Position numbers and translations under genes: made by a program. From NCBI GenBank assembly GCA_964384095.1, contig CAYLKC010000001.1, positions 1,106 to 65,105 of the forward strand: a DNA stretch of 64,000 bases. The letters run 5' to 3'. Under the pieces are notes generated by a model. It searched no databases and was not told where the DNA came from. It worked only from the letters and a program-made list of their open reading frames with translations. Shown here piece after piece: positions 3,585 through 60,822 of the stretch; position 1 is the first letter of the stretch; the number at the start of each line of letters is the position of its first letter. Source of the DNA: an uncultured Chromatiales bacterium (GTDB taxonomy: Bacteria > Pseudomonadota > Gammaproteobacteria > SZUA-140).

Positions 3585-3594
3585 CCGTTGGGGC

Positions 3595-7055: not shown

Positions 7056-7056
7056 T

Positions 7057-10234: not shown

Positions 10235-10237
10235 GTC

Positions 10238-11977: not shown

Positions 11978-11991
11978 TAAGCTGGACAGCT

Positions 11992-13101
11992 ATGAAGCTC
12001 TTGTCAGTCGATCACGCCTACGTCCTCGATCTGCTCAAATCGCTGCTGATGACGCCGAGTCCGACCGGCTATACCGACCGCGTCGTACACCTGGCCTGCG
12101 AACAGCTCGAGCAGCTCGGCATCGACTACGAGATCACCCGCCGCGGCGCGATTCGCGCGACGCTGAAGGGCACGGTCTCCAGCCCCGACCGCGCGATCGT
12201 CGCCCACCTGGATACCCTCGGCGCTATGGTCAAGGAGCTGAAACCCGACGGCCGGCTGCGCATCGTGCCGATCGGCCACTGGAATGCCCGCTTCGCCGAG
12301 GGCGCGCGAGTGACGATCTTCAGCGATCTGCGTTCGTATCGCGGCACGATCCTGCCGCTGAAGGCCTCCGGCCATACCTTCGGCCCCGAGATCGACAAGC
12401 AACCGTCGAACTGGGACAACCTCGAGGTCCGCATCGATGAGGTCGCTTATAACCTCAAGGACCTGATGCGGCTCGGCATCCATGTCGGTGACATCATCGC
12501 GATCGACGCCAGCCCGGAGTTCGCCGGCAACGGCTATATCAATTCCCGTCACCTCGACGACAAGGCCGGCGTCGCGATCCTGTTCGGCGTCGCCAAGGCG
12601 ATCGTCGATGCCGGCATCGTGCTGCCGGTCGATTGTCACCTGCTGTTCACGATCTCCGAGGAGGTCGGCTCGGGCGCCTCGCATATCCTGCATCAGGACG
12701 TTGCCGAGATGGTCACTGTCGACAACGGCACGACCGCGCCTGGACAGAATTCGAGTGAATTCGGCGCGACCATTGCAATGGCCGACATGACTGGACCGTT
12801 CGACTATCACCTGACGCACCGGCTGCTGCAGCTGTGCCAGGAGTTCGGCATCGCCCACCAGCGCGATATCTTCCGCTATTACCGTTCCGACAGCGCCGCA
12901 GCGGTGGAGGCCGGCAATGATCTGCGCGTCGCCCTGGTCACCTTCGGCGTCGATGCCTCGCATGGCTATGAGCGCATCCACTGGAATGCCCTGCAGTCGC
13001 TGATCGAACTGCTCACCATCTATGTGCAGAACTATCCGCTGTACGGCCGTGACCGCAACGCGCTCGGTCCGCGGGCCGGTTTTCCGATTCAGCCGAGTTG
13101 A
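11992..13101 (+). CDS. M42-family peptidase of the NAGGN osmoprotectant operon
   Basis: AHLDTLG, DDKAGVAILF, SEEVGSGAS and VDNGTTAPG are M42 motifs; directly follows ngg. Confidence 0.8.
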   Translation: MKLLSVDHAYVLDLLKSLLMTPSPTGYTDRVVHLACEQLEQLGIDYEITRRGAIRATLKGTVSSPDRAIVAHLDTLGAMVKELKPDGRLRIVPIGHWNARFAEGARVTIFSDLRSYRGTILPLKASGHTFGPEIDKQPSNWDNLEVRIDEVAYNLKDLMRLGIHVGDIIAIDASPEFAGNGYINSRHLDDKAGVAILFGVAKAIVDAGIVLPVDCHLLFTISEEVGSGASHILHQDVAEMVTVDNGTTAPGQNSSEFGATIAMADMTGPFDYHLTHRLLQLCQEFGIAHQRDIFRYYRSDSAAAVEAGNDLRVALVTFGVDASHGYERIHWNALQSLIELLTIYVQNYPLYGRDRNALGPRAGFPIQPS

Positions 13102-13131
13102 GCGCCGGACGATAACGTATAATGCCGGCGC
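13102..13131. other. GC hairpin (gcgccgg/ccggcgc) enclosing a perfect TATAAT; possible operon terminator and/or sthA -10 element
   Basis: 7-bp stem; loop contains acgTATAATg; lies between the M42 stop and sthA. Confidence 0.25.
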
Positions 13132-13163
13132 ATCGCCCGGCCGGGCGGGGGGAGGGGCCGTCG

Positions 13164-14534
13164 ATGTCTGAGCATCACTATGACGTAGTCGTGATCGGCA
13201 GCGGGCCGGGCGGCGAGGGCGCCGCGATGAAGGCGTCGAAAGAAGGCCGCCGCGTCGCCGTCGTCGAGGAGTTCGCCGAGGTCGGCGGCAACTGCACCCA
13301 TCGCGGCACGATCCCGAGCAAGACCCTGCGCCAGAATGTCCAGTTCGCGCTCGAGAGCGGCGCCGGCAATGGCCGTCGCTATCCCGATCTGCTGAAGACC
13401 GCGCGCGGCGTCATCCGCAAGCAGGTCGACATGCGCCGGGCCTTCTACGAGCGCAACCAGGTCGATGTCATCCACGGTCGCGCCGCGTTTACCGGAGACC
13501 ACGCCGTCGAGGTTGCGAAGGCGGGTGGTGCGACCGACGTCGTCAGCGCCGATGCCTTCGTCATCGCGACCGGTTCTCGGCCCTATCAGCCGCCGGACGT
13601 CGATTTCAGCCATCCGCGCGTGCTCGACAGCGATTCCGTGCTGGAGCTGGACGACACCCCGCGTTCGATCACGATCTACGGCGCCGGCGTCGTCGGCTGC
13701 GAGTATGCCTCGATCTTCCGCAGCCTCGGGATCAAGGTCAACCTGATCAATACGCGCGGCCAGCTGCTGTCCTTCCTCGATGACGAGATCGTCGACGCCC
13801 TGAGCTATCACCTGCGCGAGCAGGGCGTGCTGATCCGTCACAACGAGGAATACGAGCGCGTCGAGGCCGATGACGGTGGCGTCACGGTATTCCTGAAGTC
13901 GAACAAGGAAATTCGCACGGATTATCTGCTGTGGGCGCAGGGACGTACCGGCAACTCGGACCGGATGGGGCTGGAACAGCTCGGTGTGGTCACCAACGAG
14001 CGTGGCTCGATCGTCGTCAACGATCGTTACCAGTCGAGCCGCGAGCATATCTATGCCGTCGGTGACATCACCGGCTATCCGAATCTCGCCAGCGCTGCCT
14101 ACGACCAGGGTCGTTTCGCCGCCACGCACCTGGTGCGCGGCGTCTGCGAGACCGGCCTGGTCCGCCAGATCCCGACCGGGATCTACACGATTCCGGAGAT
14201 CAGCTCGATCGGCGAGACCGAGCGCGAGCTGACCGCGGCGAAGGTCCCCTATGAGGTCGGCCACTCGCTGTTTCGTCACCTCGCGCGCGCGCAGATCTCG
14301 GGCAAGACCACTGGCATGCTGAAGATCCTGTTCCACCGCGAGACGCTGAAGATCCTCGGCATCCACTGCTTCGGCGCCCAGGCCTCCGAGATCATCCACA
14401 TCGGCCAGGCAGTGATGGCCCGCGAGGACGGCGGCAATTCGCTGATGTATTTCATCAATACCACGTTCAATTATCCGACCATGGCCGAGGCCTACCGCGT
14501 GGCGGCGCTGAACGGCCTCAATCGCGTCAGTTGA
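13164..14534 (+). CDS. sthA: soluble pyridine nucleotide transhydrogenase
   Basis: Full-length match to E. coli SthA/UdhA ([18 protein letters not shown] ... [23 protein letters not shown]); start at the ATG after a GGGGGAGGGG RBS. Confidence 0.9.
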
Positions 14535-14636
14535 GACGACCGCCCGGGCGGACGTGAACCCGGCCGCCGGCTGGGTTACAATGGCCGTTCTGTGGCCGTT
14601 TCGGTCCCGGCAACCTAGGCTGAAGAAAGCACCGCT

Positions 14637-14843
14637 ATGAAAGAACTTGCACGCATGATGGTCTATACCATCGGCGCCGTATCCGTGATTTTCATCATGA
14701 TCTGGCTGACCCGGCAGGAAGGGCTTTCAGGCAACTTCATGGTGAGCGTCGCCGTCCTGCTGATCATCATCATTCCGATCACCCTCGGGGTGATCATGGC
14801 CCGCCGCGAACGCCAGCAGCGGGAGCGCGATACCCGCTCCTGA
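14637..14843 (+). CDS. small hydrophobic protein (two predicted TM helices)
   Basis: 68 aa; stop 2 nt before the TraB/GumN start (translational coupling). Confidence 0.5.
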   Translation: MKELARMMVYTIGAVSVIFIMIWLTRQEGLSGNFMVSVAVLLIIIIPITLGVIMARRERQQRERDTRS

Positions 14844-14845
14844 TC

Positions 14846-15772
14846 ATGCGGGCCCGGGTCACGGCGCCCGTCCTCCTGCGCGGATTCCTGCTGTGCGTGC
14901 TGCTGGCGGTCCTGCCGGCCACCGCCGCCGAGCCGCGCCTCTTCTGGCAGGCAGAATCGCCCGCCGGTACGGTCTGGCTGCTCGGTTCCCTGCACTTCGG
15001 CGATCCCTCGATGTACCCGCTGCCATCCACGATCACTGCGGCGCTGGCCGATGCCGAAGTCCTCGTCGTCGAGGTGGATATCACCGCCCATGCGCCGGAG
15101 GCGGTCGCCGAGGCGATCAGTCGCCGCGGCCTGTATCACGACGGGCGCAGGCTCGGCGATGTCGTCGATGCCGGGACCTGGCAATCGCTGGCCACGATCG
15201 CGGGAGATCTCGGGGTGCCCCTGCCGCTGCTGGAGCGGCAGAAGCCGTGGTTCGCCACGATGACGCTGACGACGCTGGCGCTCTCGCGTGCGGGTTTCCC
15301 CGGTGATCTCGGCATCGACATGCATATGATGGCGCTGGCCGCGGAACAGGGGATCCCGATCGTCGAACTGGAGTCGATCGCCTTCCAGCTCGAACTGCTC
15401 GACGGCCTGTCCGCCGATGCGCAGGCGCTGATGCTCGAGCAGACCCTCGAACAGCTCACGGATACCGAACACCACTTCCGCAGGCTGCTCGAGGCCTGGC
15501 AGGGCGGCGACGCCGATGCGCTCGCCGGGATTCTCGTCGAGGAACTGCGCGGCCCCGGCGCGGATGACGAGCTCTACCGCGCGCTGCTCATCGAGCGCAA
15601 CGCGACGATGACGCGCGATATCGTCGCGCTGCTCGAGCGCCATGACGCGGTCTTCGTCGTCGTCGGCGCCGGGCATATGGTCGGGGAGGATGGCATCGTC
15701 GCCGGGCTCGCAGAGCGCGGATTCCGCATCGATCAGCCCGGCCTGCGGTCGGATCCGCCGCCGCGACCCTGA
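14846..15772 (+). CDS. TraB/GumN family protein, secreted
   Basis: Signal peptide; GSLHFGD and VVVGAGHMVG motifs of PF01963. Confidence 0.7.
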   Translation: MRARVTAPVLLRGFLLCVLLAVLPATAAEPRLFWQAESPAGTVWLLGSLHFGDPSMYPLPSTITAALADAEVLVVEVDITAHAPEAVAEAISRRGLYHDGRRLGDVVDAGTWQSLATIAGDLGVPLPLLERQKPWFATMTLTTLALSRAGFPGDLGIDMHMMALAAEQGIPIVELESIAFQLELLDGLSADAQALMLEQTLEQLTDTEHHFRRLLEAWQGGDADALAGILVEELRGPGADDELYRALLIERNATMTRDIVALLERHDAVFVVVGAGHMVGEDGIVAGLAERGFRIDQPGLRSDPPPRP

Positions 15773-15780
15773 GCTGCCGC

Positions 15781-15803
15781 CGGCGCGGTGGTCTTGTATA
15801 ATT
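15781..15803 (+). promoter_or_regulatory. putative sigma-70 -10 element (TATAAT) for the beta-propeller/sulfotransferase pair
   Basis: cttgTATAATtgg ~30 nt upstream of the 15834 start; -35 is weak. Confidence 0.3.
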
Positions 15804-15833
15804 GGCGGAAACACAAATCTCAAGGGCAGGGTA

Positions 15834-17093
15834 ATGGCACAATCGTCAGGGGATATCGGACAGTTCACGGCCGGCTTCTATGTCGGTAACCGCAAGACCG
15901 GCGCTGTCGCGGTCGTCGACAGGCGTGACGGCAAGGTCAGCATCGACCCGCTCGACACCGGCGCCGAGACCGGGCTCGAGCAGGCGCTGAAGCCGATCTT
16001 CGTCGGGCTCAGTGAGAAGCGCGACATCATCCTGCTCGATCCGGCGACCAGAACGATCCGCCTCGAATCCGCGTTCCCGGCCGATGCCTTCCCCGCGCAT
16101 ATCTACGAGGACCCGACCTCCGAACGAAGCTGGTTCATGAATGACGGCGACAAGGAGACCGGCAACGACAGGCTGAACTGCGGTGACGCCGGTTCCTCGG
16201 TCACCGTCGTCGAGCACATCGACAGTACGCGCGCGAAATTCCTCGCGACGATCTGCGTCGGCCGCGGCCATCACCAGGCCGCCTTCAGTCATCCGTCGGA
16301 CAGCGCCCCGGATGTCCCGCGCCTGGCCTGGATCAGCAATCTCAAGGATGGCACCCTGTCGGTCATCGGTAATGATCCCGCAAAGCCGGATGACTATCTC
16401 AGACTCATCGCGACGATCAACCTCTGCGAACCCGACCGCGAGGAGGGCATGAGCGGCGCGGCGATCCCGAACAACGCCTTCCCGCACGGGCTCGTCTACT
16501 CGCCGCTGACCGGGAAGGTCTACAACCTCAACAACGGCTACGGTGACATCGCGATCATCGACCCGCGCACGCTGACCATCGAACGGCATCTCCCGTTCAA
16601 GGGCCACAGCAACCTGTTCATCTCGCCTTGTGGCCGCTACATCATCGGCCGCGGCGCCGACCGCAAGTCTGATCCGAACCACGTCATCGCAAAGCTCAGC
16701 GTCCTCGACGTCAGCGACCTGACCGTCACCGACCGTCTCGAACTGCGCGACATCTACATCAGCAAGTACTACTTCAACCGCGCCGGCACCCGGCTCTACC
16801 TGACGACCTCGAGTTCCGGCAGCCCCGAGCAGCAGCAGACCCTGCGCCAGGATGCGCTGGTCATCATCGACCTGGGTGCGTTGCCGAAGCTGAAGGTGCT
16901 GCGTGAACTCCGCCTCGGCTCGCCTTCCGGCTCACTCGCGTTCGTCACCGGCAGCGGCGGTCGTGAACTCGTGCTGTCCTCGAATTCCGAGGCCGGCAGT
17001 CTCGTCGTCATCGACGGCGCGAGCGACGAGATCGTCGACACGATTCCGGTCATGCCCGGCCAGGGCCACTCCCGTGTCTGGAGTCTTGGTTAG
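15834..17093 (+). CDS. cytoplasmic beta-propeller repeat protein (YVTN/lactonase-like blades), function unknown
   Basis: Start trimmed to the ATG after aagggcagggta; repeated ...VYNLNNGYGDIAIIDP.., ..LSVLDVSDL.., ..LVVIDGASDEIVDTIPV.. blade-like segments; no signal peptide. Confidence 0.55.
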   Translation: MAQSSGDIGQFTAGFYVGNRKTGAVAVVDRRDGKVSIDPLDTGAETGLEQALKPIFVGLSEKRDIILLDPATRTIRLESAFPADAFPAHIYEDPTSERSWFMNDGDKETGNDRLNCGDAGSSVTVVEHIDSTRAKFLATICVGRGHHQAAFSHPSDSAPDVPRLAWISNLKDGTLSVIGNDPAKPDDYLRLIATINLCEPDREEGMSGAAIPNNAFPHGLVYSPLTGKVYNLNNGYGDIAIIDPRTLTIERHLPFKGHSNLFISPCGRYIIGRGADRKSDPNHVIAKLSVLDVSDLTVTDRLELRDIYISKYYFNRAGTRLYLTTSSSGSPEQQQTLRQDALVIIDLGALPKLKVLRELRLGSPSGSLAFVTGSGGRELVLSSNSEAGSLVVIDGASDEIVDTIPVMPGQGHSRVWSLG

Positions 17094-17126
17094 AGAGTCA
17101 TCGGGCGGCGTGAACCGGTACGCGCA

Positions 17127-17984
17127 ATGGACAAGGAACAGTTGCTCGATCCCAAATGGGGCGCCCCTGGCCGCACGCACGACCCGGTCATGCTCGCGAA
17201 TTTCCACCCGCGTCCGACCGATGTCCTGATCACCACCGCGCCGAAGGCCGGCACGACCTGGATGCAGCAGATCCTGCACCAGCTTCGCAGCGGCGGTGAC
17301 GAGGGCTTTGAATCGATCTTCGATGTCGTCCCGTGGATCGAATTTCCGAATCCGCGGCGCAGCTGGCAGGATCGCCTCGAGGAATTTGAAAGACTCCCCG
17401 ATCCACGCATCTTCAAGACCCACTGTACCTACGAGCAGACCCCGGGCGTCGACACCGTCCGCATCGTCCTGACCTCGCGCGACCCGCGCGACTGCTGCGT
17501 CAGCATGTATCACCATCAGATGAACCTGACCGACGAGGCGCGCGCCGAGATGAACTTTCCGCCGCCGGCGTCATTCGACGAATTCTTCGAGCGATGGATG
17601 GAGTTCGGTGCCTGGTATCGCAATGTCGCCAGCTGGTGGCCGCATCGCAATGCGTCAAACCTGCTCTGGCTGCGATATGAGGACCTCATCGCCGATCCCG
17701 GGGCCGGGATCGACCGGCTGCTCGTCTTTCTAGGCTGGCGGCTCGCCCCGGAGGCGAGGGCGCGGGTGCTCGAGTACTGCTCGTTTGCGTGGATGAAGCG
17801 CCATTCCGACCGCTTCACGACGCGGCTGCCGTCAGGCCGGTTGTCGTTCCGTCCCAGGAGCTTCATTCGCAAGGGCAGGGCTGGCGATCATGCCGGCCAG
17901 CTCAGCGAGTCCCAGGCGCGCGCGATCATCGAGCGGGCGCGGCGGGAGCTTGATCCTGCGTGCGTTGCCTTTCTCGGACTTTGA
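17127..17984 (+). CDS. PAPS-dependent sulfotransferase (PF00685-like)
   Basis: 5'-PSB motif PKAGTTW, 3'-PB motif TSRDPRD, C-terminal RKGRAGDHAGQLS (RKGxxGDWKxxF-like). Confidence 0.8.
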   Translation: MDKEQLLDPKWGAPGRTHDPVMLANFHPRPTDVLITTAPKAGTTWMQQILHQLRSGGDEGFESIFDVVPWIEFPNPRRSWQDRLEEFERLPDPRIFKTHCTYEQTPGVDTVRIVLTSRDPRDCCVSMYHHQMNLTDEARAEMNFPPPASFDEFFERWMEFGAWYRNVASWWPHRNASNLLWLRYEDLIADPGAGIDRLLVFLGWRLAPEARARVLEYCSFAWMKRHSDRFTTRLPSGRLSFRPRSFIRKGRAGDHAGQLSESQARAIIERARRELDPACVAFLGL

Positions 17985-18456
17985 TGGCCTCGTGTTCGGC
18001 GCGCACCAGTGCGCGGCCCAGCGCCGTGACTCTGCGCTGGTAGTCCGCGGCCTCGGCGGACAGCTCGCCTGAGGCGATCGCGGCGTCCAGCGCCTCCTGC
18101 TCCTCCGGCGTCAATGCCTCCAGCCCGTCGATATACTGCTTCAGCGCCTTGCGCGGATTCTCGATGATCTTGTGGCGCAGGTGATTGGCGATGAAAAACA
18201 GGATGAACGCCATATAGGGAATGAACAGCGCGACGATCGCGAGAAAGGTCGGGCTGGTTTCGGGATTGCGCACCGCGGGGACGATCACGGTGATCTGGAA
18301 GGTCACGAGCGAGATGATCGCGACGAACGCGGCGATGAGGAAGGGCAGGAGCTTCTTCTGGATAGCGGCCCGTTCTGCCTCGGCCCGGTCGCGCTCGGCC
18401 GCAATCTCTGTCGATGTCGGTGGCGGGGCGCCGAGGTCGAATTTGAGGGCCATCAT
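17926..18456 (-). CDS. hypothetical membrane protein
   Basis: Hydrophobic helices LLPFLIAAFVAIISLVTF and FLAIVALFIPYMAFILFFI; start trimmed to MMALK to avoid the tRNA; convergent 59-nt overlap with the sulfotransferase makes the exact ends uncertain. Confidence 0.4.
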   Translation of the reverse strand: MMALKFDLGAPPPTSTEIAAERDRAEAERAAIQKKLLPFLIAAFVAIISLVTFQITVIVPAVRNPETSPTFLAIVALFIPYMAFILFFIANHLRHKIIENPRKALKQYIDGLEALTPEEQEALDAAIASGELSAEAADYQRRVTALGRALVRAEHEAIKVRERQRTQDQAPAAPAR

Positions 18457-18468
18457 CCAGAAACAGTT

Positions 18469-18544
<76 letters not shown>

Positions 18545-20531: not shown

Positions 20532-20549
20532 TTGGCATGGCAATTGCTC
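20532..20549 (+). promoter_or_regulatory. sigma-54 promoter (-24/-12) for the flgB operon
   Basis: TGGCAT-N5-TTGCT with GG-N10-GC spacing, ~50 nt upstream of flgB. Confidence 0.6.
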
Positions 20550-28091: not shown

Positions 28092-28116
28092 CCGGATTCA
28101 TGAAATCGCGATGACG

Positions 28117-28124
28117 GCCGATAA
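28117..28124 (+). promoter_or_regulatory. sigma-28 -10-like element (GCCGATAA) upstream of flgK; -35 not convincing
   Basis: Exact GCCGATAA ~110 nt upstream of the flgK start. Confidence 0.25.
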
Positions 28125-31422: not shown

Positions 31423-31450
31423 TAAAGGACAGCGGGGTCGAGGCCGATAT
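31423..31450 (+). promoter_or_regulatory. sigma-28 (FliA) promoter of fliC
   Basis: TAAAG-N15-GCCGATAT, near-perfect match to TAAAG-N15-GCCGATAA, ~100 nt upstream of fliC. Confidence 0.75.
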
Positions 31451-31552: not shown

Positions 31553-33013
31553 ATGGCTATGATTATCAACACCAATATTGCGTCGCTGAACGCGCAGCGC
31601 AATCTGACCAACACCCAGAACGACCTCTCGGTCTCACTCCAGCGCCTGTCGACCGGCCTGCGCATCAACAGCGCCAAGGACGATGCCGCCGGTCTGGCGA
31701 TCTCCGAGCGCTTCACGACCCAGATCCGCGGCCTGAACCAGGCGGCACGTAACGCCAACGACGGCATCTCGCTGGCGCAGACCGCCGAAGGCGCCCTCGG
31801 CGAGGTCACCAACAACCTGCAGCGCATCCGCGAGCTCGCGGTACAGGCCCGCAACGCGACCAACAGCGCCTCGGACCGTGAGGCCCTCGACGCCGAGGTG
31901 CAGCAGCGCATCAATGAAATCAACCGCGTCGCCAACCAGACCGAGTTCAACGGCTTGAAGGTCCTCGACGGCACCTTCACCGAGCAGGTCTTCCAGGTCG
32001 GCGCCAACCAGGGCCAGACCATCAGCGTCGACTCGATCGCCAGCGTGACGTCCCAGGCCCTCGGTCTCGCGGCGGGCACCACGACCGTGATCCAGGCCGC
32101 GACCGGCGGCGACACGGCCGTGACCGGGGCGCTGACGGACGGCGACCTGACGATCAATGGCACCGCGATCAATGCGTCGGTCGACGGCGCGAACGGTGCA
32201 GCGGCCGGCGAGGCCGATTCTTCGGCATTCGCGATCGCCGCAGCGATCAATGGTTCCAGTGTTACCGGCGTCACCGCGACCGCGACCACGGTGGTCGATG
32301 ACGCGTTCGTCACCGTCACAGGCGCCGCACTCGCTGATGGCAATGACTACACCCTGACCATCAACGATGTCGAGCTGTTCAACAACGCGCTGGGCGCCGG
32401 TCAAGAGGTGACCGCCGACGATGTCATGGGCCTGATCAATGACAGCGCGGAGCTGGCGGCGCTCGGCATCACGGCCACGGTCGATGGGGACAGCGGCAAC
32501 CTGGTGATCACCGCCGAGGGTGGTCGTGACATCATCATCGCACAGACCTTCGGTGACGACCTGACCGATACGCAGGGTCTGGAGGGCACGACCTCCGGTA
32601 CCGTTGCGCTGACCTCGGATGCCGAGATCGAGATCGCCGGTAATGACCCGACCGTCGCCGGCCTGACCGCCGGTACCGTTGAAGTCACCGAGACCGAAGT
32701 CGAGGTCACCGGCACCAACGTGCTGACGACCGATGCGGCCGATGCGGCGCTGACGACCATCGACGCGGCGCTGACCATCGTGAACGGTTCGCGCGCCGAC
32801 CTCGGCGCGGTGCAGAACCGCTTCGAATCGGTCATCGCGAGTCTGACCTCGGCGTCGGAGAGCCTCGCCGCCGCGCGTTCGCGGATCCTGGATGCCGACT
32901 TCGCCGCCGAGACCGCGGCGCTGACCCGGGCCCAGATCCTGCAGCAGGCCGGTGTTGCGATCCTGGCGCAGGCCAACGCGCTGCCGCAGCTCGCACTGTC
33001 GCTGTTGCAGTAA
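31553..33013 (+). CDS. fliC: flagellin
   Basis: [18 protein letters not shown]... N-terminus and ...[11 protein letters not shown]-terminus; variable central domain; start set to the ATG rather than the upstream TTG. Confidence 0.95.
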
Positions 33014-33027
33014 GGCGCATGATGAGC

Positions 33028-33061
33028 GGCCCGGGGCCCACGGGTCCCGGGCCGGCTTTTA
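33028..33061 (+). terminator. strong rho-independent terminator after fliC
   Basis: 12-bp GC stem ggcccggggccc/gggtcccgggcc followed by a TTTT run, overlapping a second palindrome gccggcttttaagccggc. Confidence 0.7.
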
Positions 33062-33095
33062 AGCCGGCCGCATGACCGGCAAGAGAGGTGACACC

Positions 33096-33485
33096 ATGCC
33101 CATTCAACAGACACCCCCGATGAGTTCGGACTTCGCGCGCGTGCCGTCCCGGCCCATCGTCTCGCCGTCTGTGCCGGTGCCCGAAGGCGGCCGGCAGGAA
33201 TTGCAGGCAAACGGCAAGGTACTGCCGACCGGCGACACGCAACCGGAACCGAAGGTCATCAATCGCGACGAGCTGGCCGCGAGCGTCAGCCGGCTCAACG
33301 ACCATGCCCGCGCCATCAACCGCGATCTCAAGTTCACCGTCGACGAAGACATCAACAAGGTCATCGTCAGGGTCTATAACGCGGAGACCGACGAGCTGAT
33401 TCGCCAGATCCCCTCGGAAGAGGCGCTGGCGATGGCGCGTCATCTGGCCAGAGACGAGGGGATCATCGTGGATACCGAGGTTTGA
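33096..33485 (+). CDS. flaG: flagellar protein FlaG
   Basis: FlaG-family C-terminus (KFTVDEDINKVIVRVYNAETDELIRQIP); ATG at 33096 has a GAGAGG RBS (alternative start 33072). Confidence 0.8.
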   Translation: MPIQQTPPMSSDFARVPSRPIVSPSVPVPEGGRQELQANGKVLPTGDTQPEPKVINRDELAASVSRLNDHARAINRDLKFTVDEDINKVIVRVYNAETDELIRQIPSEEALAMARHLARDEGIIVDTEV

Positions 33486-33491
33486 TCCAGG

Positions 33492-33509
33492 TTGGTCTCC
33501 ATTTTGCAT
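33492..33509 (+). promoter_or_regulatory. sigma-54 promoter for fliD
   Basis: TTGGTC-N5-TTTGCA with GG-N10-GC spacing, ~50 nt upstream of fliD. Confidence 0.55.
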
Positions 33510-33557
33510 TTTTATCCGGATAACGGAGTGAAATGAAGCGTTGAAGGCGGATCATTC

Positions 33558-35588
33558 ATGGCGAATATAGTTTCGCTCGGCATCGGTAGCGGACTCGATA
33601 TCAATTCGATCGTCTCCGAGCTGGTCGAGTTACAGAGGCGCCCGCAGCTGCAGCGCCTCGATGTCAGAGAGGCAAATCTACAGGCGCGCCTTTCAGGGAT
33701 CGGTTCCCTGCAGGGCGCGCTTTCCTCGTTGCAGGACTCGCTCGGCAATCTCTCCCGCCTGCAAACCTTCAACGGCCGCACTGCGAGCGTCGCGGACACA
33801 GCAATCCTTGCCGCCAGCGCCGGCACGGCCGCCGCACCCGGCAGCTACGAGATCAGCGTCGATGAGCTGGCCCGCGCACAGCGGCTCGCCAGCGACCCGG
33901 AGGCGCACGAGGCAGCACGATTCACCTCGCTGAATGATATCGTCGGCACCGGTACGCTGACCTTTCGTTTTGGCGAGACGGCGTATGATGCCGAATCCGG
34001 CGTCTACCAGTCCTTCACTCGCGATCCCGATTCGGCGATTCATACCGTTGAGATCAGCGATGGCAGTCTGCGCGGCGTGCGCGATGCGATCAACAACGCC
34101 GAAATCGGCGTCACCGCCGCGATCGTCTTCGATGGCGCGCATTACCGCCTGACCCTGTCCGGCAATGAGACCGGCGCCGGTAACAGTATCGAGATTACGG
34201 TCGATGACGCCGATGGTAATGCCGGAGATGCCGCCGGCCTGTCCCTGTTTGCGTTCAACGACGGCGCGGCGCATCTGCGCCAGACCCAGTCGGCCAGCGA
34301 CACCGCAGGCCTGCTCGTCAACGGCATCGCGATCCAGAGCGCGAGCAACTCGCTGGTCAATGTCGTTGAGGGTTTGGCCATCGACCTGAAATCGCCCGGG
34401 ACGACGACGGTTACGGTGGCCCAGGATCGCGAAGGTGTGAGTGGTGCGATCAGCGAGTTCGTCGACAAGTTCAACGCCCTCGTCGTCACCATCAACCAGC
34501 TCTCGCGTTTCGACCCCGAGACCAATGAAGCCGGGCTGCTCAATGGCGACAGCGTGCTGCAGGCCGTGGATTCCCAAATCCGCCGCATTCTCAACCAGTC
34601 GATCGGCGGGCCTGACAGCCCGTTCCGCCATCTCGCCGATGTCGGAATCACGCGCAGCGCCGGAGACGGTACGCTGGTCCTCGACGAGGCCAGGTTGCAG
34701 CAGGCGATGAATCGCGACTATGACGCGATTGCGCGACTGTTTGCGAACGCAGGCATCATCGATGACCCGCTGACCAACTTCCAGACCGCCGGCGCCAATA
34801 CCCAACCTGGCGACTATGCCGTTCATGTCACGCGCATCGCGACCCGTGGCACGCTGACGGGTTCCGCTGCGGCGGCCCAGGAGATCATCGCCGGCATTAA
34901 TGACACGCTGTCGGTCAACATCAATGGCGCGGCAGCGACGATCACGCTGACGCCCGGGGTCTATGCATCGGCGAATGCGCTGGCCACGGAATTACAGGCA
35001 AGGATCAATGGCGCCGATGCGATACGCCGCGCCGGCGCCACGGTGCTGGTCGAGGCCGACGCTGGAGGCCGCCTGATCGTCACCTCAGACAGCTACGGAT
35101 CGGCGTCTCGCGTGTCGATAAGTACGGGTGCCGGCCGCAACGCCCTGTTCGGCGCGACGCCGCAATCTGTGCAAGGTGTCGATGTCGCCGGCACCATCGG
35201 CGGTGTGGCCGCGACCGGCGCCGGGCAGACCCTGATCGGTCAGGGCGATGCGGACGGCCTCAGGTTGCGCATCGCCGGCGGCGAACTCGGCGACCGCGGC
35301 GTGCTGTCGTTCACGCGTGGCATTGCTGACAGCCTCGATCGCATGGTGAGCGGCATGCTGAACGGAGACGGCCTCTTCAGGTCTGTCACCGAAAGCATCA
35401 ACCAGCAGATTCGCGACCTCGGTGGCCGGCGTGAACAGGTCGAGCAGAGGGCGCTGACGTATGAGGAACGTCTGCGCGTACAGTTTACGGCGATGGATGC
35501 GCTGGTGGCGCAGCTGCGATCGAGCGGAGACTTCCTGTTACAGCAACTCGACAATCTGCCGCAGATCGGACAGAACCGTAACCGATGA
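33558..35588 (+). CDS. fliD: flagellar filament cap protein FliD (676 aa)
   Basis: FliD N- and C-terminal conserved regions. Confidence 0.9.
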   Translation: MANIVSLGIGSGLDINSIVSELVELQRRPQLQRLDVREANLQARLSGIGSLQGALSSLQDSLGNLSRLQTFNGRTASVADTAILAASAGTAAAPGSYEISVDELARAQRLASDPEAHEAARFTSLNDIVGTGTLTFRFGETAYDAESGVYQSFTRDPDSAIHTVEISDGSLRGVRDAINNAEIGVTAAIVFDGAHYRLTLSGNETGAGNSIEITVDDADGNAGDAAGLSLFAFNDGAAHLRQTQSASDTAGLLVNGIAIQSASNSLVNVVEGLAIDLKSPGTTTVTVAQDREGVSGAISEFVDKFNALVVTINQLSRFDPETNEAGLLNGDSVLQAVDSQIRRILNQSIGGPDSPFRHLADVGITRSAGDGTLVLDEARLQQAMNRDYDAIARLFANAGIIDDPLTNFQTAGANTQPGDYAVHVTRIATRGTLTGSAAAAQEIIAGINDTLSVNINGAAATITLTPGVYASANALATELQARINGADAIRRAGATVLVEADAGGRLIVTSDSYGSASRVSISTGAGRNALFGATPQSVQGVDVAGTIGGVAATGAGQTLIGQGDADGLRLRIAGGELGDRGVLSFTRGIADSLDRMVSGMLNGDGLFRSVTESINQQIRDLGGRREQVEQRALTYEERLRVQFTAMDALVAQLRSSGDFLLQQLDNLPQIGQNRNR

Positions 35589-35636
35589 TCGTCCCGCGCG
35601 GATAATAACTATTTTACTGAAACGGAGGAGCAGGCA

Positions 35637-36101
35637 ATGGGTCAGGCAGGCGCCAGTGGCGTATTGAAGGACTATCAGAAGACAGGGCTGAGCGGCGCGA
35701 CCGAGGGCGCGACGCCTCATCGCCTGATCCAGATGCTGATGGAGGGTGTGCTCGACCGCATCGCCTCGGCGCGCGGCTCCATGGAGCGCGGCGAGATCGC
35801 GCGCAAGGGCGCGCAGATCAGCTGGGCGATCTCGATCATCGAAGGGCTGCGCGTCAGCCTCGACAAGTCGATGGGCGGCGAGATTGCACAAAACCTCGAC
35901 AACCTCTATGGCTACATGATCCTGCGCCTGACCGAGGCGAACATGAAGAACGAGCCCGCGTATCTCGATGAGGTCTCTGATCTGCTGCGCCAGATCAAGG
36001 GCGCCTGGGATGCGATCCCGGCCGAGACCGTCCGTGCCCATGCGGCGGGCGACCGCGAGGCGGTATTGCAGGGGGAGGGGCGCACGAGCGACGCGCGATG
36101 A
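35637..36101 (+). CDS. fliS: flagellin-specific chaperone FliS
   Basis: FliS four-helix core (LIQMLMEGVLDRIASAR ... NLDNLYGYMILRLTEAN). Confidence 0.9.
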   Translation: MGQAGASGVLKDYQKTGLSGATEGATPHRLIQMLMEGVLDRIASARGSMERGEIARKGAQISWAISIIEGLRVSLDKSMGGEIAQNLDNLYGYMILRLTEANMKNEPAYLDEVSDLLRQIKGAWDAIPAETVRAHAAGDREAVLQGEGRTSDAR

Positions 36102-36439
36102 TGACCGAACGCCTGCAACAGCTCGGAGAGATTCTCGAGCGCAGTCACGACATGCTGGCAAGCGCGCGCGGCCAGCAGTGGGACAGCCTGCCGGAACTGT
36201 CGGCCGGACGCTCGCGCGCGATCGAGGCCTATGGCCGGCTGTGCGCAGCGCGGCCGGCAGATGAGGATGCCGGCGACGAGGCGGCATTGCTCGAGCGTAT
36301 CCTCGCGATCAACGAGGAGCTCGTCGCCATCGGTTCAACGCACAAGCAGTCACTAGCCGATTCGCTGTCCGGCAATCGCCGGCAGCGCAGGGCGGCGGTG
36401 GCCTACTCGGAGGCGTCCGCGCGCCATCGTGTTGTTTAA
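36098..36439 (+). CDS. FliT/FleP-like small helical flagellar chaperone (tentative)
   Basis: 113-aa all-helical protein; ATGA overlap with the fliS stop; position matches fliT/fleP in Pseudomonas-type clusters. Confidence 0.45.
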   Translation: MMTERLQQLGEILERSHDMLASARGQQWDSLPELSAGRSRAIEAYGRLCAARPADEDAGDEAALLERILAINEELVAIGSTHKQSLADSLSGNRRQRRAAVAYSEASARHRVV

Positions 36440-36466
36440 GCCACGCTGATACGGTATCTTGCCCGC

Positions 36467-37048
36467 ATGGATGATGCGGGTGTCTCCAATCAGGAATCCG
36501 GTCTCGTCTATGAGGACCGGATGCCGCTGGCCTGGGAACAGTTGCCGGCCGATCCCGATCCCGCCGAAATACCCCCGATCCTTCAGTCCAATGAACAGCT
36601 GCTCCGTTGCCTGGGCGCGCTCGATGAAGTGCGCGGCGACACCGTCGACGATGATCACGGCGCGCTGGCCCATGACATCGCACGCCTCGATTTCAAGCTC
36701 AATCTCCTGCTCGACATGGTCGGACAGCTGCTGCGCCTGCAGCGGCCCGCGCCGGCCGCGGTGCCGGTCCGCCTCGGCGCGGACGGCATACGCTGGTTTG
36801 CGTCGTCCGCCCCCGCGCAAGGCAGCCCGGTACGCGTCGAGTTGTATCTCAGCCGTTCGCTGCCGACCCCGATCCTGCTGTTCGGCCGGGTCGCCTCGGT
36901 CGATCGTGAGGACGGAGGTCAACGAATTGACGTCCGCTTCGGTGAGGTCAGCGAGCCGATGCGCAACTGGCTGGAAAAGCTGATATTCCGCCAGCATCGT
37001 CGGCAGGTCGCGCAGTCCCGGCGCCGGCAGAGGGTCGCCAGTCAGTGA
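36467..37048 (+). CDS. hypothetical protein inside the flagellar locus; possible atypical PilZ-like beta-barrel
   Basis: 193 aa; central amphipathic helix LAHDIARLDFKLNLLLDMVGQLL followed by beta-rich VPVRLGADGIRWF...VRVELYL...LLFGRVASV...RIDVRFGEV and an Arg-rich tail; no canonical RxxxR/DxSxxG motifs. Confidence 0.5.
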   Translation: MDDAGVSNQESGLVYEDRMPLAWEQLPADPDPAEIPPILQSNEQLLRCLGALDEVRGDTVDDDHGALAHDIARLDFKLNLLLDMVGQLLRLQRPAPAAVPVRLGADGIRWFASSAPAQGSPVRVELYLSRSLPTPILLFGRVASVDREDGGQRIDVRFGEVSEPMRNWLEKLIFRQHRRQVAQSRRRQRVASQ

Positions 37049-37055
37049 CGATATT

Positions 37056-37084
37056 TTGACAGGCCTCATAAAAAAGTTTAGTCT
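37056..37084 (+). promoter_or_regulatory. putative sigma-70 promoter of fleQ
   Basis: TTGACA-N17-TAGTCT ~100 nt upstream of fleQ. Confidence 0.45.
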
Positions 37085-37183
37085 GCAAGACTGCAGGCGG
37101 TCCCGTTACCGTGATATCAGCTGGAAGACCACAATATATAAAAGAATCATCCACGACGAGATGACAGGAGAAGGGAAGACCCG

Positions 37184-38599
<1,416 letters not shown>

Positions 38600-38658: not shown

Positions 38659-38676
38659 ACGGCACATATATTGCTG
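38659..38676 (+). promoter_or_regulatory. sigma-54 promoter of fleSR
   Basis: CGGCAC-N5-TTGCT with GG-N10-GC spacing, preceded by a ~60-nt AT-rich tract; ~67 nt upstream of fleS. Confidence 0.7.
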
Positions 38677-46859: not shown

Positions 46860-46877
46860 TTGGCATGTAACTTGCTC
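46860..46877 (+). promoter_or_regulatory. sigma-54 promoter of fliK
   Basis: TGGCAT-N5-TTGCT, ~45 nt upstream of fliK. Confidence 0.7.
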
Positions 46878-48245: not shown

Positions 48246-48263
48246 CTGGCATACGTATTGCTA
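48246..48263 (+). promoter_or_regulatory. sigma-54 promoter of fliLMNOPQR-flhB
   Basis: TGGCAT-N5-TTGCT perfect core with GG-N10-GC spacing; AT-rich tract upstream. Confidence 0.7.
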
Positions 48264-58968: not shown

Positions 58969-59709
58969 TTGGACCTGCTGAGCATCATCGGTATTGCCCT
59001 CGGACTGGTCGCCGTCCTCGGCGGATCGATCGCCAAGGGCAGCGGACTCGGCGCGCTGTGGAATATGGCGGCGCTGGTGATCGTTTTCGTCGGCACGCTG
59101 GCGGCAGTGCTGGTGCAGACGCCGCTCAAGGTCTTCCTGCACTCACTGAGGATCCTGCCGTGGCTGATGAAGCCGCCGCAGATCGATCCGGGCGGCGTCA
59201 TCGAGAAGATCGTCAGCTGGAGCAATATCGCCCGCAAGGAGGGCCTGCTCGGTCTCGAGTCTCTGGTCGAGCAGGAGAGCGATCCGTTCTCGCAGAAGGG
59301 TCTGCAGCTGCTGGTCGATGGCAGCGAGCCGGAAGTCATCCGCGGCATCCTCGAGGTCGAGTTGACCACCCGCGAGGATTTCGACAAGAAGGCGGCCGGC
59401 GTATTTGAGGGCATGGGTATCTACGCGCCGACGCTCGGCATCATCGGTGCGGTTATGGGGCTGATGGCGGTGATGCAGAACCTGTCGGACCCGAGCAAGC
59501 TCGGACCCGGCATCGCCGCGGCCTTCGTCGCGACGGTCTACGGCATCGCCTCCGCAAACCTGCTGTTCCTGCCGATGGCCAGCAAGCTCAAGTCTCATGT
59601 GCAGAGCCAGACCCAGTATCGCGAGATGATCATCGACGGCATCATCTCGATTGCCGAGGGCGAGAATCCGCGCAACATCGAGACCAAGCTCAGAAGCTAT
59701 CTGCAATAG
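58969..59709 (+). CDS. motA: flagellar stator protein MotA/PomA family (MotC-like position)
   Basis: Four TM segments; MotA/TolQ/ExbB signature; TTG start. Confidence 0.85.
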   Translation: MDLLSIIGIALGLVAVLGGSIAKGSGLGALWNMAALVIVFVGTLAAVLVQTPLKVFLHSLRILPWLMKPPQIDPGGVIEKIVSWSNIARKEGLLGLESLVEQESDPFSQKGLQLLVDGSEPEVIRGILEVELTTREDFDKKAAGVFEGMGIYAPTLGIIGAVMGLMAVMQNLSDPSKLGPGIAAAFVATVYGIASANLLFLPMASKLKSHVQSQTQYREMIIDGIISIAEGENPRNIETKLRSYLQ

Positions 59710-59724
59710 GCGCAGGGGACCGCA

Positions 59725-60822
59725 ATGGCCAGGCGCCACAAGCACGAGGAGCATGTCAATCACGAGCGCTGGGCGATTCCCTACGGGGATCTGGTCACGC
59801 TGCTGCTCGCGTTCTTCGTCGTCATGTACTCGATCTCGTCGGTCAACGAGGGCAAGTACCGCGTGTTGTCAGACTCGCTGATGTCGGCATTCCGCCAGCC
59901 GGCGAAGTCGATGGAGCCGATCCAGATCGGCCGGCCGGCAAAGTCGCCGATGACCGCGAACATCAATTTCATCGAGCGTCCGTCCTTCGTCGATAACCAG
60001 ACGCAGATCGTCCGCAGTCCGCACCAGACCGAGGAGGGGCATCGCAGCCACTTCCCCACCCTGGGCTCGCTGGTCGGCTCCGACAAGGTCGCCGAGATCG
60101 GTCGCATTGCCGATGAGATCAGCCAGGCGCTCAAAGGGCTGATGGATGAGGGGCTCGTGACCGTCCACTTCAATGAACTCTGGCTCGAGGTCGAGATCAA
60201 GGACAGCGTGCTGTTTCCGAGCGGCAGCGCCCAGCTGCAACCACGCGCAATCCCGGCACTGCAACAGGTCGCCGGGATCCTGCGCGAGGCCGCCAATCCG
60301 GTGCGCGTCGAGGGTTTCACCGACAACGTCCCGATCAACACGCTGCTGTACCCGTCGAACTGGGAGTTGTCTACGGTCCGCGCGGCGAGCGTCGTGCGCC
60401 TGTTCACGCGTGAGGGGATCGCGCCCGAGCGCCTGTCCGCGCTCGGCTACGGCGAGTTTCGCCCGGTGGCGACCAATGACACGGCCGCCGGGCGCGCGCA
60501 GAACCGCCGTGTCGTCCTCGTGGTCCTTGCCGACGAGGAACTGTCCTATCTGCTCGATGGTGGCCTCCGTGAGCGGCGGATGCCGCCGCCCGCCAGTGAC
60601 GCCGGACCGCGCCTGCCGGAGGAAGAGGCAGCCGTCGGCGGGGCCCCGCCGGCGACTGATGAGATTCCCGGCCCGCCGCCGGTGCCCGTGTCCGCCGCGC
60701 CCGGGACGCGCGACGGGGCGCTGCTCGTCGACGGGCCCGCGGCCCGCGTCTTCGCGCCGCCGATCACGCCGATCGCGCTCGACAGGCCGGCGATCATCCC
60801 GCCAGTCCGACCCGCGCCCTGA
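59725..60822 (+). CDS. motB: flagellar stator protein MotB family (OmpA-like) with ~90-aa Pro-rich C-terminal extension
   Basis: N-terminal TM plus plug, OmpA-like peptidoglycan-binding domain (NRRVVLV), then a PPPASDAGPRLPEEE...PPVRPAP tail. Confidence 0.85.
   Translation: MARRHKHEEHVNHERWAIPYGDLVTLLLAFFVVMYSISSVNEGKYRVLSDSLMSAFRQPAKSMEPIQIGRPAKSPMTANINFIERPSFVDNQTQIVRSPHQTEEGHRSHFPTLGSLVGSDKVAEIGRIADEISQALKGLMDEGLVTVHFNELWLEVEIKDSVLFPSGSAQLQPRAIPALQQVAGILREAANPVRVEGFTDNVPINTLLYPSNWELSTVRAASVVRLFTREGIAPERLSALGYGEFRPVATNDTAAGRAQNRRVVLVVLADEELSYLLDGGLRERRMPPPASDAGPRLPEEEAAVGGAPPATDEIPGPPPVPVSAAPGTRDGALLVDGPAARVFAPPITPIALDRPAIIPPVRPAP

Follow-up and report, generated by a model that had tools for sequence, protein, structure and literature searches.

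A stand-alone tPilZ protein with degenerate c-di-GMP motifs, encoded between fliT and fleQ in a flagellar gene cluster of an uncultured gammaproteobacterium

XCC6012 of Xanthomonas campestris (XC_2249; PDB 3PH1 and 3RQA), equivalent to XAC1971, XOO2585, and the Xanthomonas oryzae (Xoo) protein PXO_06169 or "FlgZ," is the founding member of the Pfam family PF16823 (tPilZ). The protein is a tetramer with no reliable c-di-GMP binding by isothermal titration calorimetry (ITC) (PMC3131395), and its knockout reduced motility and virulence (PMC3131395; PMC6637768). One group has reported that XC_2249 binds c-di-GMP, yet this binding was dispensable for function; as partners of XC_2249, two GGDEF proteins and the pilus ATPases PilT and PilU have been reported (reviewed in PMC3749722). 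In Xoo, a fliS-fliTX-flgZ operon has been shown by RT-PCR, with co-transcription under RpoN2/FleQ and FliA (PMC5550985). FlgX of Campylobacter jejuni, another tPilZ tetramer, binds MotA and stabilizes the stator ring, and it shares with XCC6012 the fold alone, at about 6% identity (PMC11725899). The tPilZ proteins that are competent for binding retain an N-terminal RxxxR and a second motif of the S-x-x-G type. The function of XAC1971 was still termed uncharacterized in 2024, and the authors of the FlgX study ask whether other tPilZ proteins associate with stators (PMC11725899).

Here, we examined a 193-aa protein encoded within a 64-kb stretch of DNA (hereafter, the window) from an uncultured gammaproteobacterium. 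The gene and the flagellar genes to which it is compared are as follows.

36467-37048, + strand: tPilZ gene, an ORF with an ATG start, encoding 193 aa plus stop
35637-36439, + strand: fliS (35637-36101, PF02561) and fliT (36098-36439, PF05400), assigned by Pfam
37184-38599, + strand: fleQ, the downstream neighbor (PF06490, PF00158, and PF02954)
58969-59709, + strand: motA, stator gene (PF01618 with PF20560)
59725-60822, + strand: motB, stator gene (PF13677 with PF00691)
61572-63410, - strand: gene for a REC-GGDEF-EAL protein, ~24.5 kb from the tPilZ gene

A preliminary description of this DNA had placed the ORF upstream of fleQ at exactly these coordinates, had read LFRSLVG in FleQ, and had located a REC-GGDEF-EAL protein 25 kb away, and all three observations were confirmed; LFRSLVG is present in the translation of the window FleQ. 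The reading frames of fliS and fliT share 4 bp, the gap from the fliT stop (36439) to the tPilZ gene is 27 bp, and a 135-bp, AT-rich spacer separates the tPilZ gene from the fleQ start at 37184. The stator genes motA and motB (58969-60822) belong to the same flagellar supercluster as the tPilZ gene.

The tPilZ gene is a real gene. An alternative in which the region codes for protein through a longer antisense ORF (36353-37069, - strand), or not at all, has next to no probability, even though the antisense ORF is longer than the tPilZ frame (238 aa) and similar to it in GC3 (0.75 versus 0.77). The GC contents at the three codon positions are mirrored between the strands (0.763/0.443/0.768 versus 0.768/0.443/0.763), so composition alone cannot choose the coding strand. 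What settles it is homology together with the stop-codon counts across homologous loci: a curated family, a crystal structure, and more than 1,300 cluster representatives all match the + frame, whereas the antisense product has no Pfam match and its frame is free of stop codons in just 17 of 77 homologous loci. The antisense ORF was therefore rejected as a gene and is regarded as a mirror-frame shadow. A crude gene caller chose the antisense ORF at this locus.

The predicted secondary structure elements of the protein, taken from an AlphaFold2 (AF2) monomer model, are arranged along the gene as follows.

36509-36541, + strand: strand b1 (residues 15-25), the opening strand of the split PilZ barrel
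36560-36742, + strand: two-helix insert, a2 (residues 32-58) and a3 (residues 65-92), the tetramerization module that defines tPilZ
36758-36940, + strand: strands b2-b6 of the PilZ barrel (residues 98-158; pLDDT 85-94)
36953-37042, + strand: C-terminal amphipathic basic helix a4 (residues 163-192)

In the Pfam search, the protein matched PF16823 with 74.3 bits (cutoff 25; E-value 1.4e-20), and the alignment covered all 136 profile positions (1-136) over residues 46-186. The match to PF07238 (PilZ) at residues 106-175 was weak and below the gathering threshold (19.3 versus 22.5 bits), PF07317 (YcgR/PilZN) gave no match in the 193-aa protein even at E ≤ 1, and the sole match in the NCBIfam search was the sub-threshold TIGR02266 (E 0.14). 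Thus, of the three family models named in the preliminary description, tPilZ alone was borne out. In a sequence search of solved structures, the sole match was XCC6012 (3PH1/3RQA; E 5e-14), with residue numbering in register. The AF2 model (pLDDT 80.5) has the topology b1-a2-a3-b2..b6-a4, in which an insert of about 60 aa is predicted between b1 and b2 of a six-stranded PilZ barrel; Foldseek with this model ranked 3RQA/3PH1 at the top (E 6e-12, TM 0.69-0.75), followed by the canonical PilZ domains of MotI, YcgR, and VCA0042. The earlier proposal of an atypical PilZ protein is therefore upheld by both the family match and the predicted fold. Its beta-rich barrel of PilZ type also stood, but the order that had been given, a helix followed by the barrel, did not, since b1 precedes the two helices. 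The protein carries PilZ-type Pfam matches only, with no fused domains, its relatives are all 155-210 aa long, and no second PilZ was seen among the ~40 ORFs scanned within the 64-kb window. Taken together, sequence, fold, and synteny identify the protein almost certainly as a tPilZ orthologue of XCC6012.

The residues that stabilize the XCC6012 tetramer are retained by the window protein at identical residue numbers. In a3, the heptad positions a are I71, L78, and V85 and the positions d are L74, L81, and L88, compared with V71, L78, and I85 (a) and M74, I81, and L88 (d) in XCC6012. L46 and R47 are conserved in the relatives. The motif for interlocking of the domains, [DENH]x[KR]h[DEN] (bioRxiv 10.1101/814665), was found by direct reading of the sequence.

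36689-36703, + strand: domain-interlocking motif D75-F-K77-L-N79, which fits [DENH]x[KR]h[DEN]

K77 is invariant in 79 of 79 clade sequences in one set and is found in 149 of 151 in the other (79 sequences and 151 representatives, the two sets used for all clade counts of motifs and residues below). These retained determinants suggest that the window protein also forms a tetramer, in which four copies of the second helix, a3, would make a parallel coiled-coil core, a barrel would sit at each corner, and the basic a4 helices would be exposed on a "roof."

The preliminary description had called the gene an extra one, inserted between fliS/fliT and fleQ. It is extra only in comparison with Pseudomonas. 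Relatives are encoded in 298 species genomes, and when the best 80 of these were compared (with denominators that differ by locus), FliS was encoded upstream at 71 of the 76 loci, an ORF of FliT size was present at 67 of 69, and FleQ was encoded downstream at 69 of 73. The order fliS-fliT-tPilZ-fleQ, found in most related genomes (Congregibacter and Haliea salexigens among them), persists down to 37% identity, and the position is kept across Chromatiales, Halieaceae, Steroidobacteraceae, and other Gammaproteobacteria, as well as in Xanthomonas. Where the cluster is broken, five loci keep fleQ without fliS and four keep fliS without fleQ; in seven loci of the Halioglobus type, 1.1-1.5 kb lies between the tPilZ gene and fleQ, with a gene for a REC-LuxR regulator in two of them. 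In the window, fliS, fliT, and the tPilZ gene are probably co-transcribed, and fleQ is probably a separate transcription unit. Consensus scans returned two candidate boundaries of the operon.

35579-35605, + strand: weak sigma-28-like promoter match just 5' of fliS, with 3 mismatches to TAAAG-N14-GCCGATAA
37034-37049, + strand: hairpin resembling a terminator, with a T-rich tail; it overlaps the stop codon of the tPilZ gene

The former is a possible promoter of the fliS-fliT-tPilZ operon, judged from a weak consensus match of a level that occurred 12 times in the window against 4.6 expected. The latter, likewise a weak consensus match, is a possible end of the operon, and three terminator-like sites in the region against 2.1 expected make this weak evidence. 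Matches to the sigma-54 promoter (TGGCAC-N5-TTGCT, ≤2 mismatches) were not enriched in the window (13 versus 13.8 expected), with none upstream of fliD, fliS, or the tPilZ gene, and a sigma-70 scan gave no match in 32900-37300. Sigma-54 sites with one mismatch were seen upstream of other flagellar operons in the window.

As the preliminary description had noted, the canonical pair of c-di-GMP motifs, RxxxR and DxSxxG, is missing. The sole Arg within residues 1-46 is R18, and RxxxR occurs only at residues 153, 175, and 185, so that none lies ahead of b1; by regular expression and alignment, RxxxR ahead of b1 was found in 0 of 79 and 1 of 151 clade members. [D/N]xSxxG occurs nowhere in the window protein, and among clade members none of the 79 and a single one of the 151 has it intact. 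This motif-less clade comprises about 1,300 cluster representatives at 50% identity. The C-terminus is Arg-rich, as had also been described, with RQHRRQVAQSRRRQR present and 9 K+R against 2 D+E at residues 163-193. From the alignments, we defined a signature, F-R-x-H-R-R-x-x-A, within a4.

36770-36787, + strand: degenerate second c-di-GMP motif R102-L-G-A-D-G107, aligned with H-W-S-V-R-G of XCC6012
36986-37012, + strand: F174-R-x-H177-R178-R179-x-x-A182 within a4, invariant in the clade alignments

F174 and R178 are found in 151 of 151 representatives, H177 in 149, and R179 in 148; F174, R175, H177, R178, R179, and A182 are common to the window protein and XCC6012.

The residues for c-di-GMP binding are lost, and the window protein is therefore a member of a known family and probably not a new receptor. 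The proposal that it is a flagellum-specific c-di-GMP receptor, which would bind through a non-canonical site such as the Arg-rich a4 with R175xxxR179 and signal to the motor or FleQ, appears quite improbable. A PilZ fold is present, the a4 helix has invariant Arg residues, R175-x-x-x-R179 may form a non-canonical nucleotide site, and the same cluster encodes both the REC-GGDEF-EAL protein and a FleQ that carries LFRS. However, both motifs are gone not only from the window protein but also from 150 of 151 clade representatives, and XCC6012, whose FRLHRRQIADARR helix is identical, did not bind reliably by ITC (PMC3131395). Some tPilZ proteins are known to bind c-di-GMP, such as PA2989 with a Kd of 188 nM, but FlgX also does not (PMC11725899), and the one group that claimed binding for XC_2249 called it unnecessary for function (PMC3749722). 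In a broader form of this idea, the invariant F-R-x-H-R-R-x-x-A helix, displayed four-fold on the roof of the tetramer, could be a new ligand site for c-di-GMP (non-canonically, via R175xxxR179), FleQ, or DNA. We give this only a slim chance; if it were true, late flagellar assembly would feed back directly on the neighboring master regulator FleQ.

On balance, we lean toward a tetrameric, c-di-GMP-independent motility adaptor that docks via a4 as the best explanation of the whole. Because the tPilZ gene is last in the fliS-fliT-tPilZ unit, its product would be made alongside late flagellar assembly factors. In this reading, the protein would support motility as a fixed adaptor between proteins, with its invariant helix bound to a conserved part of the motility machinery, for which the cytoplasmic face of the MotA stator pentamer is a candidate surface. 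That the protein is an adaptor acting independently of c-di-GMP is quite likely. MotA is the leading candidate for the partner, but only tentatively, by analogy with Campylobacter FlgX only. The likeness between FlgX and XCC6012 is one of fold, and the gene neighborhoods differ, so the transfer of the partner is a weak analogy, and the partners reported for XC_2249 count against MotA.

Two other partners have to be weighed against this adaptor reading. The preliminary description had suggested a partnership with FleQ, in which the protein, as an anti-activator or a co-activator, would bind this master regulator or its DNA and so adjust the expression of flagellar genes. The sole evidence is adjacency, that is, the position of the tPilZ gene directly 5' of fleQ in most loci and the persistence of the pair in the five loci without an upstream fliS, to which may be added that a basic surface presented four times could be a platform for DNA or for an acidic domain. 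This adjacency is explained by membership of the tPilZ gene in the fliS-fliT-tPilZ operon and by an ancestral fliD-fliS-fliT | fleQ order, and co-transcription occurs with fliS-fliT and not with fleQ (PMC5550985). Moreover, three genes separate the tPilZ gene from fleQ in Xanthomonas, the spacing is widened in the Halioglobus-type loci, in four loci the gene stays with fliS where no fleQ follows, and a literature search found no published FleQ interaction of tPilZ; the suggestion is therefore rather implausible. An alternative drawn from XC_2249 places the protein at the type IV pilus: GGDEF-domain proteins would recruit it as an adaptor, and it would bind the retraction ATPases PilT and PilU and so control pilus-dependent motility. 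Yeast two-hybrid, far-Western, and FRET data for the Xanthomonas orthologue (reviewed in PMC3749722) and the REC-GGDEF-EAL protein encoded in the same cluster speak for it. Nevertheless, the tPilZ gene is locked into the flagellar fliS-fliT operon over many lineages, the Xoo gene is controlled by flagellar sigma factors (PMC5550985), and no pilus genes were found among the ~40 ORFs scanned in the 64-kb window, and we consider this alternative unlikely.

The family to which the protein belongs is already known, with a Pfam model, a crystal structure, knockout phenotypes, and a documented Xanthomonas operon, and the instance in the window is an ordinary one. For the mechanism of the family outside Campylobacter, the motif-less clade, the position of its genes, fixed after fliS-fliT in the 80 genomes compared, and the invariant FRxHRR helix together point to a specific set of residues and a candidate partner. 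If the link to MotA is true, polar FleQ-type motors would commonly carry a stator-bound component on the cytoplasmic side, and such a component would not be a specialty of the Campylobacterota.

YcgR, FlgZ (PA3353), and MotI, flagellar effectors with the stator or the rotor as their target, share with the window protein the PilZ barrel, which is its next-best structural match. They are two-domain PilZN-PilZ motor brakes, whereas the window protein has no PilZN domain, and they are c-di-GMP-dependent, motility-inhibiting, and not tetrameric. The name "FlgZ" of the Xoo tPilZ gene clashes with that of Pseudomonas FlgZ. PA2989 of Pseudomonas aeruginosa and Lpg1926 of Legionella are closer in architecture, being stand-alone proteins of about 190-200 aa with a two-helix insert in the PilZ barrel; however, they retain RxxxR plus xxSEGG or [D/N]xSxxG, neither of which occurs in the window protein, and PA2989 binds c-di-GMP with a Kd of 188 nM to 2.9 µM. 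FlgX of C. jejuni (PMC11725899) resembles the window protein in its stand-alone tPilZ fold without c-di-GMP motifs, in its Arg-rich C-terminal helix, which is functionally essential in FlgX, and in being encoded beside flagellar genes, and it promotes motility, as we infer for the window protein. In contrast, there is no detectable sequence similarity between the two (the published figure is about 6% identity for FlgX versus XCC6012), FlgX has neither the [DENH]x[KR]h[DEN] motif nor the N-terminal helix, its gene neighborhood is ubiA-flgX-flgW, and binding to MotA has been demonstrated for FlgX only. The window protein, whose host is an uncultured Chromatiales-like gammaproteobacterium, shares about 28% identity with XCC6012 over the structural alignment and has N79 in place of D79; its second motif reads RLGADG instead of HWSVRG, and thus even the SxxG remnant is lost. 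In the window, fleQ comes directly next, whereas a LuxR-type regulator gene, rpoN2, and vemR intervene in Xanthomonas. The window protein and XCC6012 have nearly equal lengths (193 versus 188 aa) with numbering in register, the same b1-a2-a3-barrel-a4 topology, the same heptad a/d positions and K77 salt-bridge residue, the F174-R-x-H-R-R-x-x-A182 helix, two degenerate c-di-GMP motifs, and a gene that follows fliS and fliT in a FleQ-type flagellar cluster.

The gene is present at exactly 36467–37048 (+), where the preliminary description placed it; it starts with ATG and encodes 193 amino acids. It is separated from fliT by 27 bp and from fleQ by 135 bp, and fleQ is followed by genes for a FleS-like kinase and a FleR-like regulator and then by fliE/fliF. 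The immediate neighbors, assigned with Pfam, are:

35637–36101, fliS
36098–36439, fliT
37184–38599, fleQ

The LFRSLVG motif is present in the FleQ translation, and the REC-GGDEF-EAL protein mentioned previously is encoded at 61572–63410 (−); a DUF2802 protein gene (61118–61561, +) follows motB and converges on the latter. An antisense ORF (36353–37069, −; 238 aa) is longer than the gene and covers all of it. Codon-position GC in this ORF mirrors that of the true frame, base composition cannot tell the two apart, and a simple GC3-based gene caller preferred the antisense ORF. It was rejected as a gene and is a shadow ORF, because a Pfam scan of its product gave no match and the frame was stop-free in just 17 of 77 homologous loci, and thus is not conserved.

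The preliminary description proposed an atypical PilZ-like protein, to be checked by HMM search and structure prediction. The HMM search matched the whole profile of the tetrameric PilZ family (tPilZ, “atypical PilZ domain”; PF16823) with 74.3 bits against a cutoff of 25 (E = 1.4e−20), whereas canonical PilZ (PF07238) remained below threshold (19.3 vs 22.5 bits) and the YcgR N-terminal domain model did not match the protein. The sole match among all PDB sequences was XCC6012 of Xanthomonas campestris, a tetrameric PilZ protein (3PH1/3RQA, E = 5e−14); the alignment spans residues 35–187, with native numbering in register once the PDB chain is corrected for its three tag residues. An AlphaFold2 model built from 39 homologues (mean pLDDT 80.5, pTM 0.70) has the topology b1 15–25, a2 32–58, a3 65–92, b2–b6 98–158, and a4 163–192. 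XCC6012 chains were its top Foldseek matches (E = 6e−12 to 7e−10, TM 0.66–0.76), followed at E of about 1e−3 by the canonical PilZ domains of MotI, YcgR, VCA0042, BcsA, and Alg44. The PilZ fold was therefore correctly anticipated, and the HMMs suggested for the check were well chosen; however, the modeled topology and Foldseek matches indicate that, instead of forming a separate module C-terminal to a helix, the barrel is split after b1 by a two-helix insert, the hallmark of tPilZ (PMC3131395; bioRxiv 10.1101/814665).

The tetramer determinants of XCC6012 are also retained. In XCC6012, the coiled-coil core consists of V71/L78/I85 at position a and M74/I81/L88 at position d, with K77 forming salt bridges with D75 and D79 and extra contacts from L80, L82, L84, and V89 (Li et al.). 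The corresponding residues here are I71/L78/V85 and L74/L81/L88, with L80, L82, M84, and L89 at the further contact positions, and D75-F-K77-L-N79 matches the generalized interlocking motif of tPilZ, [DENH]x[KR]h[DEN] (bioRxiv 10.1101/814665). K77 occurs in 149 of 151 representative relatives, and the residues linking a2 to a4 in XCC6012, L46 and R47, are conserved. All the testable hallmarks of tPilZ and the XCC6012 orthologous group are present, and the protein lacks those that define a canonical c-di-GMP-binding PilZ or a YcgR/FlgZ; it is a further member of a known family.

c-di-GMP-binding tPilZ proteins (PA2989 and probably Lpg1926) carry RxxxR before b1 and an S-x-x-G-type motif on b2 (bioRxiv 10.1101/814665). 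The canonical pair is absent here, as the preliminary description stated: the first 46 residues contain one Arg only (R18), and the second site reads R-L-G-A-D-G. Neither RxxxR ahead of b1 nor [D/N]xSxxG occurred in any of 79 aligned clade members (0/79 each), and each motif was found in 1 of 151 representatives; nine of the 79 have RxxxR (W-R-D-I-x-R-E or similar) where b1 ends or immediately beyond it, outside the canonical location. XCC6012 gave no reliable ITC signal for c-di-GMP (PMC3131395), and the Campylobacter jejuni tPilZ protein FlgX does not bind it (PMC11725899). Because of the motif loss and these negative results, direct c-di-GMP sensing is unlikely and the proposed c-di-GMP receptor is unsupported, although R175xxxR179 within a4 keeps the door open to a non-canonical receptor, which we consider quite improbable.

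A search of 5.8 billion proteins returned 39 relatives, 38 with PF16823 (185–210 aa); the weakest (156 aa) had no precomputed domain. Searched with a profile, 1.84 billion cluster representatives yielded 1,339 at E ≤ 1e−3 and 375 at E ≤ 1e−30, the best 150 of the 1,339 being stand-alone proteins of 155–208 aa. When one genome was scanned per species, 298 species proved to encode a relative; the best 80 belong to Chromatiales MAGs (the closest with 75% identity), Halieaceae (Congregibacter, Haliea, Halioglobus), Steroidobacteraceae, Acidiferrobacterales, Thiotrichaceae, and unclassified Gammaproteobacteria. Among these 80 loci, FliS was encoded upstream on the same strand in 71/76 that had enough flank, a FliT-sized ORF lay between FliS and tPilZ in 67/69, and FleQ was encoded downstream in 69/73. 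Called genes on metagenomic contigs gave the order flaG-fliD-fliS-fliT-tPilZ-fleQ-fleS-fleR-fliE-fliF, which held down to 37% identity. The position is thus conserved, and the gene is “extra”, as it had been called, only relative to Pseudomonas. Two loci (L008/L009) encode a giant flagellin upstream of flaG (1–2310, +; at least 1,095 residues, running off the locus). In one gammaproteobacterial MAG of low GC (L016), where no fliS lies upstream, a YcgR-type PilZN-PilZ gene (3659–4396, −) lies just upstream of the tPilZ gene (5001–5555) on the opposite strand, and therefore two kinds of flagellar PilZ are encoded side by side.

In X. oryzae, RT-PCR placed fliS, fliTX, and the atypical PilZ gene PXO_06169 (flgZ) on one transcript, which depends on RpoN2/FleQ and FliA (PMC5550985). 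That gene name clashes with Pseudomonas FlgZ, an unrelated YcgR-type PilZN-PilZ protein, and could mislead annotation transfer. In the window, sigma-28-like matches numbered 12, against 4.6 expected (12 was reached in 0/100 shuffles). The one just upstream of fliS (35579–35605), which overlaps the end of fliD, has three mismatches and is weak evidence, as is a terminator-like hairpin overlapping the tPilZ stop (37034–37049). No sigma-54-like site (TGGCAC-N5-TTGCT) was found ahead of the fliS-fliT-tPilZ unit; four one-mismatch sites elsewhere look like class II/III flagellar promoters, with total sigma-54-like matches not above chance.

28098–28124 (+), sigma-28-like, upstream of a flgK-like gene (28236)
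31424–31450 (+), sigma-28-like, upstream of the flagellin gene (31544)
20533–20548 (+), sigma-54-like, before the ORF at 20598
38660–38675 (+), sigma-54-like, before the ORF at 38743 (fleS-like)
46861–46876 (+), sigma-54-like, before the ORF at 46922
48247–48262 (+), sigma-54-like, before the ORF at 48258

Beside flgN/flgM, a block at 8471–18507 encodes an asparagine synthase, a GNAT and ATP-grasp fusion, an M42 peptidase, a pyridine-nucleotide disulphide oxidoreductase, a sulfotransferase, and two products without a Pfam match (15642–17093, 483 aa; 17926–18507, −, 193 aa), and may be a flagellin-modification island. The genes at 2871–8289 (−), for an N-formylglutamate amidohydrolase-like protein, a GCS2-type ligase, a RimK-like ATP-grasp protein with an RLAN domain, and C39-like and M42-like peptidases, look like a small peptide or poly-glutamate modification cluster.

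In the alignments, the most conserved surface of the protein is a4 rather than the barrel: F174 and R178 are present in all 151 representatives, H177 in 149, R179 in 148, and A182 in 147. This C-terminal helix is shared with XCC6012 (FRLHRRQIADARR vs FRQHRRQVAQSRR). The Arg-rich tail noted earlier is present, with nine Lys/Arg against two acidic residues at 163–193, whereas the N-terminal third and the a2–a3 loop are acidic. In the XCC6012 crystal, a2 and a4 form a positively charged “roof”, a suggested interaction surface (PMC3131395). FlgX is the tPilZ protein whose mechanism is structurally defined: without it stators are lost, and the a4 double mutation R155A/R159A abolishes motility (PMC11725899). 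Knockout of XC_2249, which is XCC6012, reduces motility (PMC3131395; PMC6637768). On the grounds of the invariant, basic a4, the FlgX precedent, the XC_2249 phenotype, and a supercluster that also includes motA and motB, we propose a tetrameric adaptor acting independently of c-di-GMP and produced along with the late fliS-fliT genes; its FRxHRR helix would dock with a conserved component of the motility machinery, for which MotA is the leading candidate. As a single instance the gene is ordinary; the invariant a4 motif is a concrete handle for testing the mechanism of a widespread flagellar-operon clade.

A role in type IV pili has also been reported for XC_2249, as an adaptor that works with GGDEF proteins and PilT/PilU (PMC3749722); such a role is unlikely here, fitting poorly with the strict flagellar synteny. 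The preliminary description further suggested a FleQ partner, for which adjacency to fleQ is the sole evidence. Operon membership accounts for this adjacency, and genes intervene before fleQ in both Xanthomonas and Halioglobus, so a FleQ partner is unsupported and seems rather improbable. In broken clusters, the tPilZ gene keeps fleQ in five loci and fliS in four, and synteny therefore does not separate the readings. The Xanthomonas order is fliC-fliD-fliS-(unknown)-pilZ-LuxR regulator-rpoN2-regulator-fleQ (PMC3131395). In seven Halioglobus-type loci, 1.1–1.5 kb separates the tPilZ gene from fleQ, and in both loci examined (L042 and L063) a REC-LuxR (GerE) response regulator gene fills the interval:

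L042, 5762–6424 (+), REC-LuxR regulator gene between tPilZ and fleQ
L063, 5902–6534 (+), REC-LuxR regulator gene between tPilZ and fleQ

The Halioglobus-type loci thus have a LuxR regulator gene 3' of tPilZ, the same arrangement as downstream of pilZ in Xanthomonas.
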